This document shows, piece after piece, positions 52,859 through 64,000 of a stretch of 64,000 nt of DNA (position 1 is its first letter; each line of letters opens with the position of its first letter). A program made the translations under genes and the position numbers. The notes beneath the pieces were generated by a model. The model was not told the DNA's origin and did no database searches. It saw nothing but the letters and a program-made list of their open reading frames with translations. The stretch comes from Podarcis cretensis (Eukaryota), in contig OX638164.1 of assembly GCA_951804945.1 (NCBI GenBank), forward strand, positions 17,422,001-17,486,000, given 5' to 3'.

Positions 52859-53008
52859 CATCATGACCAGAGTTGAGAAGATGTTCTCCAAGGTCGCAGC
52901 CAAATACCCTCTCTTTTAAGATCCCACGTTGCTTCAGTTTCTGTTTTGTTGGCCGAGACTTCATGAATGTGCGCAGGAAAGTAATAAGCTTGCCGTGTTT
53001 CTTTGACA
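52859..53008 (-). CDS. ARHGAP32: ARHGAP32 coding exon (VSKKHGKLITFLRTFMKSRPTKQKLKQRGILKERVFGCDLGEHLLNSGHD), start of RhoGAP region; contains MKSRP ATG at 52964
   Basis: Manual minus-strand translation matches the known ARHGAP32 segment; ttacag acceptor and gtaagt donor; 150 nt, phase 1/1. Confidence 0.95.
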
Positions 53009-54605: not shown

Positions 54606-54968
54606 AAAGGTAAAGGTAAAGGTACCCCTGCCCGTACGGGCCAGTCTTGACAGACTCTGGGGTTGTGCGCCCATCTCACTTAAGAGGCCAGGGGCCAGCG
54701 CTGTCCGGAGACACTTCCGGGTCACGTGGCCAGCGTGACATTGCTGCTCTGGCGAGCCAGAGCCGCACACGGAAACGCCGTTTACCTTCCCGCTGGTAAG
54801 CGGTCCCTATTTATCTACGTGCACCCGGAGGTGCTTTCGAACTGCTAGGTTGGCAGGCGCTGGGACCGAGCAGCGGGAGCGCACCCCGCCGCAGGGATTC
54901 GAACCGCCGACCTTTCGATCGGCAAGCCCTAGGTGCTGAGGCTTTAACCCACAGCGCCACCTGCGTCC
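54606..54968 (-). mobile_element. Sauria SINE, distinct young CpG-rich subfamily
   Basis: (ACCTTT)3 tail, conserved core, CpG retained, 3' body differs from the other copies. Confidence 0.92.
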
Positions 54969-55704
54969 TACTCCCGAGTTCAAAACACACACTGCAGCTT
55001 TTTTTGTCAAATGCTGTTATGTTTTACAGCAGGGATTTACAGCAACCCATCACACTGGGTCCCAAGTACATCAGACCTTGGCTGCAGTCAAGGTGCTAAT
55101 CGGCAACATTTTTGTGCTAGCTGGCTGACTACAAACATTACCTTTTGCCTGGGTATTTTATGAACCTGACAAAGATTAAAAGGAAAGAAACAGCGAGATA
55201 CTCCCACCATCACTTCAAAAAAGCTTGAAAGCTTCTCTCTCTCCCCCCCCCCACCCCAATATATCCAGTTCCAGTTAAGTGTCTTGGTATTTGGGCTTCT
55301 CAGATTTGGCTGCTGTGTCTTCTAATCTCTTTTCAAGGGGAGCAGAGGATGATTGCCTGGTACTCCTAGGTTGCCAACCAGGAGAAATTGACTCTACTAA
55401 CGGTGGTGGGCTGGAGCTTAAGTTTTCCCCACCCTGATATACTTAAATTGAAAGGGAAGATACCAAGGACTATGCCAAAACAACTAGAGTTTTGTGGCTA
55501 AACAAATTTATTATGGCATGTGTTGTTGTGGACCAGAATCCAGTTCACTAATTTTATATTTTGGTCTGAAAAGTAATATCCAAATTCATAATAGCCTCTA
55601 TAGGTAATATATCCTAAAACACAGTATATATAGGCTTCTAGATAATAGCAAATACAGTAAGGGTGCAATCCAGTACTCAAGATACACTAGCTGAGGGACT
55701 GCAG

Positions 55705-61257: not shown

Positions 61258-61430
61258 CATTTATATCCCATCTTCCACAGAGCTGAAGGTGTGGGCAGTT
61301 TTCTTTATCCTCATGTCCAGCCTGCAAGGTAAACAAGGATGAGAGATAGTGACAGGCCAATGAGCTTCAGGGCTGAGGTGGGGCTTGAATCTGGGACACA
61401 GGCTAAAAATTCTGGCCACTACACCACATT
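61258..61430 (-). mobile_element. Degraded Squam3/MIR-like SINE
   Basis: atttatatccca...tttatcctca...gagagatagtgac.ggcc..tgagcttc.ggctgag.gggg.ttgaa...ccactacaccac. Confidence 0.55.
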
Positions 61431-61507
61431 AGGTTGGGATCTGAAACAAAACTATTGAATCTGAGGCCTGCATTCAGACAGCACTTTATCCCTTTTTTCT
61501 GATGTTT

Positions 61508-62075
61508 CCTTACCTGTTCACGCTTAGAACAGAGTGGTCTTTTTTGGTGGCCCTGCTAAGTACCAAAGGAGTGTCACTAGTGGCAACAGCCATTCTCTCC
61601 CATTTTATCTCTATGCTCCTTCTACGAATCCAAGTGAAAAGCGTAACATTGGCTGGGGGGGGGGAGCAGTGCCATGGAGGAAACCCTGTCTCTCAATTGG
61701 TTGGGGCCAGGCTAACAGCCAATGGGTGCAGAGAGAAGATGGTCCCCGTATAGGCAGAGGCAAGCTGCAATTGGCTAAGGTCTGAGGAGCGGGGGCTAAC
61801 TCTCAAAAAGAGCATGATGACTTGAATTCAAGGTCATGGTGAGGCTTTGGTGCTTGTCATTAGTTTTTCTTTCTCATCGGTGTTGGGCATCATGGTGGTG
61901 GCTGCGGCAACAGAGGTGAGTCCCGTGTATGTTTGACGCACAGCTGGAAACTGCTGCATGTCAGCGGCCACAGCGCAAGGTGTGGGGAATGAAGACATTT
62001 GCCTTGGCGGCTATTGGCAGCCCCACAAGAATCTCATCATGGTGCTAGAACTACAACTCCCAGTGTGTATTGCAG
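61508..62075. promoter_or_regulatory. Candidate bidirectional promoter within or upstream of an ARHGAP32 intron
   Basis: Five CCAAT boxes, ZNF143-like, RFX-like and NR5A/ERR-like motifs, raised GC and CpG, and divergent strong splice donors at 61513 (-) and 61916 (+). Confidence 0.4.
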
Positions 62076-62692
62076 CTAAACTCAAGTGCTCCCCCCCAAG
62101 TGCCTTTGGAATGTGTGTGTGCTCTCCCTATGTTTTAATTATATGTTTTATTTGAAATTTATTAACTGCATTTATATCACAGTTTCCTCCAAGGAGCCCA
62201 AGGTGATGTGCATAGTTCTAAAATTCTTCTTCTTCTTCTTCCTCTATACCCTGCTTTTTTTATCCTGACAGGGACTCAATGTCTGTGTTATGTGCGCATA
62301 TATATATAGTATATTAAGTAATATTAACTATATTGCAAACACTTTAATTTATGCTATGGAAATTTAATTCAGCGTGTGGCCTGCGGGTTTTGTGTTGAAG
62401 TACTTTTGCAGTTCACTTGGTCTGAGAGGTTAGACCATCCTGGTTTAGAAGGAGCAAACAAACTGGGTTATGTAGGAAACAGCTCTCCCAAACTCTTTAT
62501 CCTCAGCAGTCAACATTTAGAGGTATACCAACACTCAATCTGGAGCTTGCATTTACTTGTTTGAAATAATAGCTACCTCCCTGAAGCTATCAAATCTTCA
62601 TCTAAAACCTTTCCTCGGTTTAAAGCCATTACCAAACCTTGCAAAACTGAATTCCAGAAGTTCATTACTGTGATGAACAGCACTTCCCTATA

Positions 62693-62934
62693 CAGTGGTA
62701 CCTCGGGTTAAGAACTTAATTCGTTCTGGAGGTCCGTTCTTAACCTGAAACTTTTCTTAATCTGAGGTACCACTTTAGCTAATGGGGCCTCCTGCTGCTG
62801 CTGCACCGCTGCTGCATGATTTCTGTTCTCATCCTGAAGCAAAGTTCTTAACCCGAGGTACTATTTCTGGGTTAGCGGAGTCTGTAACCTGAAGCATCTA
62901 TAACCTGAAGCATCTGTAACCTGAGGTACCACTG
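62693..62934. mobile_element. Tigger/pogo-like MITE, family A, orientation 2
   Basis: TA-CAGTGGTACCTC...GAGGTACCACTG-TA. Confidence 0.9.
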
Positions 62935-64000
62935 TATCATCTTTATCATTACTGTGCACCCTACAACCAATTCCAACACCATAGAAGAATCCCCATGAAA
63001 AATGTTAGAATCCAAAGTCTGCACACACTGGGCAGGAAAGATCTGCCAGCGGGGATCTGTTCTGCACAGGGCTTCCTACAAAATGGCTTGGGAGTGGGGT
63101 TTGATCTTGAGAAACTGCAATTGGAGACTGAAGGTGTACCGGTTCCTCTGCTGTTAATTAAATTTGATCAGCATGCTAAACAAAAACATGGTCGTGTGTG
63201 CGTGGCATATTTCCATGGCAACCTCAGTATTATAAAATTGTCTGTTCTTGCTTGTATGGAGACATAAGCAGGTGTGTGCCTAAGAAATGAATTTGCCACC
63301 AATGGGACAAAATGTACTGCATTTTCACATAGGTTTTCTTCACGTAATTTACTTGGCTCCCAAAAGCAGAAAGCAAGGGCAGGGACAAAAGGATATCTGG
63401 AACAACAATGGAAAAAGGACATAGAGAGCAACACAGCCCTGCAGGACTGTTTCACAGGTCATGCTAAACCTTGCGTTCTGCAACCTGGAATCCTCCATTG
63501 GCCATGTGGGTTGGGACTAAACATCTTGAGGGCAGCAAGCTGGGGAAGACTGTTCTAAACTATGATTTAGTGCTACAGGCGTGAACCTTGGGGTTCATGT
63601 GCTCCTTCTTCCCATCCCCACATGGCCATGAGATTGGAAATGCTCACTTCAGTTTTCATGCATAATTTTGTCTAAACTATGACTTTCGACAACCAAACCA
63701 GTTTCATGGTTTCCCTAAAACAGGCATGGGAACCCTCCAGAGCTCAGGCCAAATTAGGCCTGGCAGGGGTCTTACTATGGCCTGATAAATTTACGTTTAA
63801 GGTTCTACTCACGTGTGGGCACTTTTATCAGACCCAGACACAATTACAAATAAATTGGTTTAAAAAGCACCAACTGACCAAAGAGATTAGCTTTGCCCTC
63901 AAACAGTAGAGGCTGGAAGAGCCTTGGAGGTGAACTGGCTTGCTAGCCTGTAGACAGTGCAGCAGGGTGAAAAAGATGGTTTCCCCCCACCTGTTGGCCC

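Follow-up and report, generated by a model that had tools for sequence, protein, structure and literature searches.

A promoter-like block in an ARHGAP32 intron is very probably CLSPN 5′ DNA carried by an old hAT-type transposon

The 64,000-nucleotide stretch analysed here (the window) contains, at 61508-62075, a block that reads like a two-way promoter, with five CCAAT boxes, further factor motifs and a candidate first exon on either side. The question is what such a block is doing inside ARHGAP32, a brain gene that encodes a neuronal RhoGAP. The ARHGAP32 exon preceding the one with the peptide MKSRP carries the SH3 end; located by short peptide patterns, it ends ~16.7 kb past the right edge of the window. 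The intron between these two exons is therefore 27.7 kb long, and the block lies within it, 8.5 kb upstream from the exon with MKSRP. Long and short ARHGAP32 isoforms are mentioned in the literature (PMC12920178). The first-pass annotation of the block offered either an internal ARHGAP32 promoter coupled to a divergent antisense exon, or a CpG-decayed duplicate of the promoter of another gene pair. We found transposon ends around the block, a target-site duplication (TSD), a parent for its interior, four sister copies on other contigs and a loss of CpG. The block is very probably cargo of a 913-bp non-autonomous hAT-type transposon, copied from CLSPN and reaching from the DNA upstream of that gene through exon 1 into the beginning of intron 1. 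The cargo is a likely silenced passenger that decays neutrally in the ARHGAP32 intron, where it lies antisense to the host gene. The features are as follows.

52859-53008, minus strand: ARHGAP32 exon with MKSRP, matching PDB 3iug (RICS) with E 1.2e-4 over 18 residues
61469-61516, no strand: fragment of a different high-copy repeat, identified by repeat matches, with the leftward "donor" CCTTACCTG; outside the hAT-type element
61522-61529, plus strand: left TSD GCTTAGAA, 7 of 8 bases identical to 62443-62450 (chance ~6e-4)
61530-61589, plus strand: left end of the hAT-type element, a decayed terminal repeat and then a deletion relative to other members; matches members with other cargo
61590-62215 (approximate), plus strand: captured CLSPN segment, with ~300 bp before the ATG, the first coding exon and the beginning of intron 1, by alignment to the parent
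61696-61700, minus strand: CCAAT box taken over from CLSPN upstream DNA; the parent has the same letters at the aligned position
61770-61774, minus strand: second inherited CLSPN CCAAT box, by alignment to the parent
61818-61836, no strand: near-palindrome with an NR5A/ERR-like site, in this copy only; TCAAGGTCA is missing from the parent and the three covering sister copies
61892-61921, plus strand: copied CLSPN first coding exon and donor GTGAGT; eight codons, ATG to GAG, where the parent has MAAATE and the same donor
62050-62065, plus strand: ZNF143/SBS-like site from CLSPN intron 1, 14 of 16 bases kept
62216-62442, plus strand: right end of the hAT-type element, terminal repeat at 62429-62442; 72-92% identical to the right ends of other members
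62443-62450, plus strand: right TSD GTTTAGAA, pairing with the left TSD at 7 of 8 bases

All of the strings listed by the first-pass annotation were found in place. ATTGG occurs at 61648, 61696, 61770 and 62013 and CCAAT at 61719; the RFX X-box-like string GTCACTAGTGGCAAC stands at 61573, the near-palindrome at 61818 with its NR5A/ERR-like site at 61828, and the ZNF143-like string ACTACAACTCCCAG at 62050. On the plus strand, the ATG at 61892 reads MVVAAATE up to the donor GAG/GTGAGT (61915/61916). On the minus strand, an open frame of 80 nt runs from an ATG at 61593 to a donor at 61514/61513; when spliced computationally to 53008 it is out of frame and meets a stop inside the MKSRP exon, as had been suggested. 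Five CCAAT boxes in 568 bp have a local P of 0.005 and a P of 0.86 when the whole window is scanned; the 64 kb contain 121 CCAAT or ATTGG in total, with other clusters of five to seven at 1549, 33675 and 49605. A 26-codon open frame has a chance P of ~0.29, the ACTACAAYTCCCA core occurs eight times in the 164 kb examined, and CpG o/e at 61501-62000 is 0.35, so this is not a CpG island. Taken by themselves, the motifs are a weak signal. Elsewhere in the window, 54640-54970 is a young CpG-rich SINE-like copy (o/e 0.88), with a near-identical one upstream of locus L002; it mimics a CpG island.

A search of the animal's own genome for a CpG-rich parent gave five long paralogs of the block with 68-79% identity, on contigs C5, C17 (two), C6 and C8, and found the parent in the CpG island of CLSPN on C8. 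CLSPN (Claspin) is a DNA-replication gene. The direct match pairs 61602-62079 with G000:C8:30980465-30980039 (69% identity, E 8e-44), and sister copy L002 tracks the parent as far as C8:30979885. The parent is a single CpG island (38 CpG in 500 bp, o/e 0.90) in which exon 1, MAAATE up to the same donor, is followed by more exons in frame, and two of the downstream exons match human Claspin (PDB 7pfo_Q) with E values of 2.7e-6 and 4.7e-26. Exon 2 by itself has no PDB match; exons 1-2 have presumed homologues in other vertebrates. Terminal inverted repeat (TIR)-like sequence was absent from 60 kb around the parent at up to 2 mismatches. By alignment, C8 is the unambiguous parental locus, a TIR-less CpG-island site with the full Claspin gene. 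From the MAAATE exon and the Claspin exons at the parent it follows that the rightward "first exon" is a copy of CLSPN exon 1; its ATG, exon and donor are not a chance arrangement, since they can be aligned to the true CLSPN first exon. The exon has eight codons in copies (window 61892-61915 and L006) and six in present CLSPN (L004 1664-1681), and the transposon copies probably preserve an older state of CLSPN exon 1 and its promoter. The capture was at the DNA level, with upstream DNA, donor and intron 1 all retained, and the copy is not a retrocopy. Nor is it a segmental duplication: the flanks of the copies are unrelated apart from repeats. A literature search for CCAAT, E2F or NF-Y at the CLSPN promoter gave nothing specific.

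The proposal of a CpG-decayed duplicate is therefore right in essence and wrong in one point. The block is a duplicate with a CpG-rich parent, the CLSPN 5′ end, but that parent is not the promoter of a gene pair: the nearest divergent gene found there, AGO4 (E 1.7e-30), has its ATG 17.8 kb from the CLSPN ATG and a CpG island of its own, which speaks against a promoter shared by the two.

Short TIRs and an 8-bp target duplication are the signature of hAT transposons. The CLSPN segment, ~630 bp in size, lies between two ends of this form in an element of 913 bp (61530-62442), whose family we take to be hAT from the form of its TIRs and TSD. The family TIRs are 14 bp long, CAGGGTGGTCCAAC and its complement; the right end in the window matches at 12 of 14 positions and the left end at 9 of 10, the rest being deleted. 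Members with other cargo match the left end at 88% over 61540-61589 (L024), 83% (L032) and 92% (L050). The right breakpoint of the cargo is approximate and falls inside an intronic repeat, where the parent has an unrelated repeat. The first-pass annotation overlooked that the duplicate is carried in an element with TIRs and a TSD, and membership in a multicopy repeat, which it had itself named as a ground for refutation, thus applies to the block. The same TIRs and 8-bp TSD rule out an LTR or SINE origin.

The family is dispersed and carries no transposase. The genome search returned 144 candidates on many contigs, 40 of which were scored, and both ends were present in 17 of the 35 other family loci examined. 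Among these two-ended members the TSD agrees at 7 or more of 8 bases in 8 and at 6 or more in 12; three additional members, L070, L086 and L087, are perfect at 8/8. Members with both ends and 5 or more matching TSD bases out of 8 measure 315-1392 bp; L070 is ~2.0 kb owing to nested insertions. Members of ~350 bp lack the CLSPN cargo, and others hold unrelated interiors. Of the 69 loci with hAT transposase (PF05699), 30 were checked as possible autonomous partners, and none had matching ends within 1.5 kb. hAT dimerization domains occur in frames of 720-730 codons at G000:C4:61289727, C9:73864590, C4:72777541, C8:5672643 and C13:18597284, which are possibly intact transposases or domesticated genes; the three of these that were examined (L121, L125 and L126) show no ends of the 61530-62442 family. 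To the right of the element, 62693-62934 is a short TIR element with TA flanks, presumably Tc1/mariner-Tigger-like, with further copies in L003 and nested within L050.

CLSPN DNA is carried by five copies on four contigs: C15 (the window), C5, C17 (two) and C6. Outside the element, the flanks of the sister copies have only other repeats in common with the window. Compared with the parent, the copies have in common 32 non-CpG substitutions and 21 inserted columns, and the joint between left end and cargo falls at the same point in the window, L002, L003 and L005. A matching pair of TSDs occurs only in the window: L002 has both ends with a TSD of 3/8, only the left end is present in L003 and L005, and L006 lacks both; a further 5-8 kb of flank contained no right end for L003, L005 or L006. 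Pairwise non-CpG distances among the copies are 0.17-0.27, and no order of events can be read from a tree of the parent and the five copies, which has no root, a star-like shape and supports of 49-64. Contigs of organisms A and C bridge the left junction with ~2-5% difference, which makes the insertion older than those splits. From these data we infer one capture followed by several transpositions. Either a template switch or the repair of a gap, at the CLSPN CpG island while it was open, would have captured the CLSPN start a single time; a trans-acting hAT transposase would then have driven several transpositions, and germ-line methylation with CpG deamination would have followed in the copies.

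The same ends also carry other interiors. A second one is found in L024, L032, L040, L070 and probably L068; in the three tested (L024, L040 and L068), 519-663 bases align with 73-75% identity to a locus on C14 that lacks TIRs and is richer in CpG. This locus (L069, G000:C14:30012700-30013430) matches the second interior over ~700 bp and lies 1.4-2.1 kb upstream of the start codon of a CKMT1-like (mitochondrial creatine kinase) gene (gene match E 2e-5). Given that position, the family seems to have captured CpG-island DNA at least twice, from CLSPN and from the CKMT1 upstream region. A third interior type (L034, L047, L050, L086-L090 and L099) has no clear single-copy parent and is common to TIR-less, repeat-like loci, so not all of the cargo is promoter DNA. 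At least five further interior types were noted, in the group of L034, L047, L050, L086-L090 and L099, in L057 and L063, in L045 and L060, in L035, L036 and L033, and in L038.

Set against this history, the motifs of the block come from three sources: CLSPN, the transposon end and another repeat. Inherited from CLSPN are the CCAAT boxes at 61696 and 61770, the ATG with its donor and the ZNF143/SBS-like site; the parental GC box GGGCGG next to CCAAT 61770 now reads AGGCAG. The CCAAT boxes at 61648, 61719 and 62013 and the NR5A palindrome have no counterpart in the parent. CCAAT 61719 is a product of CpG deamination, since three sister copies read AACGG there, and the NR5A near-palindrome arose as a CpG-rich stretch of the parental sequence decayed. 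The X-box-like motif lies within the left end of the transposon and is absent from the CLSPN parent. Across the 27.7 kb of the ARHGAP32 intron, the canonical X-box pattern is matched once, at 63210-63222, outside the transposon and 770 bp to its right; as a candidate native regulatory site of the intron, this match is more plausible than the flagged motif.

The leftward exon has a different origin. Read from the capture junction, its frame crosses the transposon end and the target duplication and enters the flank, and the CLSPN parent has no ATG at the position where the frame starts. The donor belongs to the repeat at 61469-61516: most of the 40 scored genome matches to the block are to this piece, the donor string was present in three of four copies of the repeat that were examined, and summed contig depth over it is ~3000 compared with 55-80 in the unique flanks (run X10). 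As judged from these matches, the leftward "exon" is pieced together from the transposon end, the target duplication, flanking sequence and a different repeat. The last of these supplies the donor, which one contig of a related species (organism A) in possible RNA run X3 crosses unspliced. The "bidirectional" look arose because true CLSPN signals became linked to a transposon end and the insertion fell beside a repeat with a donor-like motif on the opposite strand. Past the window, at window coordinate 65171 (L017), the intron holds another strong donor pattern on the minus strand, which could possibly mark a true alternative first exon of short ARHGAP32.

Decay of the cargo was followed by comparison with the parent and with other organisms. 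The window copy has kept 7 of the 36 parental CpGs, and its differences from the parent are concentrated at CpG positions (32/74 vs 74/391 elsewhere, p=1.6e-5), with L002, L003 and L005 similar. The cargo shows no excess of interspecies conservation over its flank, with changes at 11/622 vs 5/229 positions in organism C (p=0.78) and at 13/151 vs 6/151 in organism A (p=0.15); organism C also has a 10-bp deletion that would remove CCAAT 62013. None of the sequencing runs listed with the locus is on record as RNA; five have a small share, and X1, X3 and X4, all from organism A, were examined as possible RNA over 61280-62520, with a depth of 2.4-4.3 for locus-specific pieces. No joint at either donor was seen in the contigs of these three runs, at this low depth and with no cover at 61748-62093. 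The pieces fit intronic pre-mRNA or DNA. On sequence grounds, the window copy is most likely non-functional as a promoter.

An unlikely alternative accepts the same hAT-captured CLSPN start and holds that this copy was exapted as an NF-Y/ZNF143 promoter or enhancer, giving an antisense transcript from 61915 or an alternative ARHGAP32 start. The window copy does retain both parental CCAAT boxes, the ATG, the donor and 14/16 bases of the SBS, and its private changes tend to avoid parental motifs (3/48 vs 54/336 elsewhere, p=0.083); three extra CCAAT boxes have appeared, and the insertion is old and common to organisms A and C. At least 30% of Pack-TIRs in three species are reported to be transcribed as chimeras (PMC8277862). 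Against this stand the lost CpG island and GC box, the lack of excess conservation, the missing joints and the unspliced minus donor in the low-depth contigs, a minus exon that would yield an out-of-frame upstream frame, and a CCAAT cluster that is not significant window-wide. Private changes of the parent itself are equally low in the motifs (3/48 vs 49/304). A comparison of the window with the parent alone gives motif changes at 3/55 vs 71/336 (p=0.005), a test biased by the fact that this copy was flagged for its motifs. Because the copy was chosen in this way, and L006 likewise keeps both CCAAT boxes, the ATG and the donor, exaptation is left as a minor possibility. Similarly doubtful is a wider version, by which the family repeatedly captured and scattered gene-5′ CpG-island DNA and the ARHGAP32 copy, having kept NF-Y sites, SBS, ATG and donor under selection, acts as a cell-cycle promoter antisense into ARHGAP32 or supplies a repressive upstream frame.

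The reverse direction, with the CLSPN promoter and exon 1 derived from the transposon, is very improbable. It would account for a parent with as many private changes as the copies (52/352) and without the segments that the copies have in common, and the unrooted, star-like tree allows it; but the parent has no transposon end, the segment holds the start codon of CLSPN and its first donor, which read on in frame into exons 2-3, and the same ends bear unrelated interiors or, in the ~350-bp members, no such cargo. Least credible of all is a native bidirectional promoter inside ARHGAP32, serving the short isoform and a divergent spliced antisense RNA, as its position upstream of the MKSRP exon and the rarity of donor patterns in that intron (two minus-strand matches and one plus-strand match) are outweighed by a block that is a dispersed repeat with TIRs and TSD, a plus exon that is CLSPN exon 1 and a minus donor that is a fixed part of another repeat.

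Captured CLSPN DNA in a hAT-type element thus remains the preferred reading, and a false promoter call is corrected: a two-way promoter can be mimicked when a captured gene start with its transposon end comes to lie next to another repeat. Bidirectional CpG-island promoters of the NF-Y/ZNF143 kind have CCAAT boxes and an ACTACA-type SBS near the first exon. The block resembles them in just these features and differs in having no CpG island at the copy, no divergent partner gene at copy or parent and a repeat composite as its leftward exon. The bidirectional architecture put forward for the block is not supported, as no two divergent genes start within ~1 kb at the parent, where AGO4 is 17.8 kb away, and the left exon of the copy is a repeat composite. 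If any copy were active, the finding would matter more, because it would show a DNA transposon rewiring one gene with the promoter of another. Searches for a published CLSPN-carrying element (squamate hAT capture, lacertid first-exon capture, and Pack-TIR with CpG island since 2021) returned none, in a scope that excludes most subscription papers, Repbase and Dfam.

The element has the tested defining features of a Pack-TIR as the class is outlined in a published survey (PMC8277862). Where the class calls for 100-5000 bp of internal host-derived sequence, ~630 bp of CLSPN lie between 61530-61589 and 62216-62442. The survey gives four multicopy cases in animals (1.4%) and kept elements with at least 90% identity to the parent ("young"); this filter, which does not define the class, is not reached by the window cargo at 69% (PMC8277862), and elements as old as this one would be missed by it. 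What is probably an old multicopy Pack-hAT is thereby added to a class reported as rare in animals (PMC8277862). The closest case described there is Pack-hAT-N8_XT of Xenopus tropicalis, a hAT element with 291 bp of CAPSL 5′ UTR in three copies (Tan et al. 2021, PMC8277862). Both have non-autonomous hAT ends around the 5′ sequence of a host gene, a parent on another chromosome, copies on several chromosomes and GC-rich cargo (PMC8277862). Unlike Pack-hAT-N8_XT, the CLSPN element carries ~630 bp with upstream motifs, coding exon 1 and a donor, is much older at 69% identity to its parent, shows distinct TSDs in only one of five copies, and belongs to a family whose ends carry several different interiors (PMC8277862). 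A further likeness is to plant Pack-MULEs (PMC5861414), TIR elements with GC-rich gene pieces that were amplified and then methylated, which differ from it in their long Mutator TIRs, whereas the element described here has short hAT-type TIRs, an 8-bp TSD and few copies per cargo. Plant Pack-MULEs favour GC-rich cargo (PMC8277862), and the apparent repeated capture of CpG-island DNA by the present family runs parallel to them.
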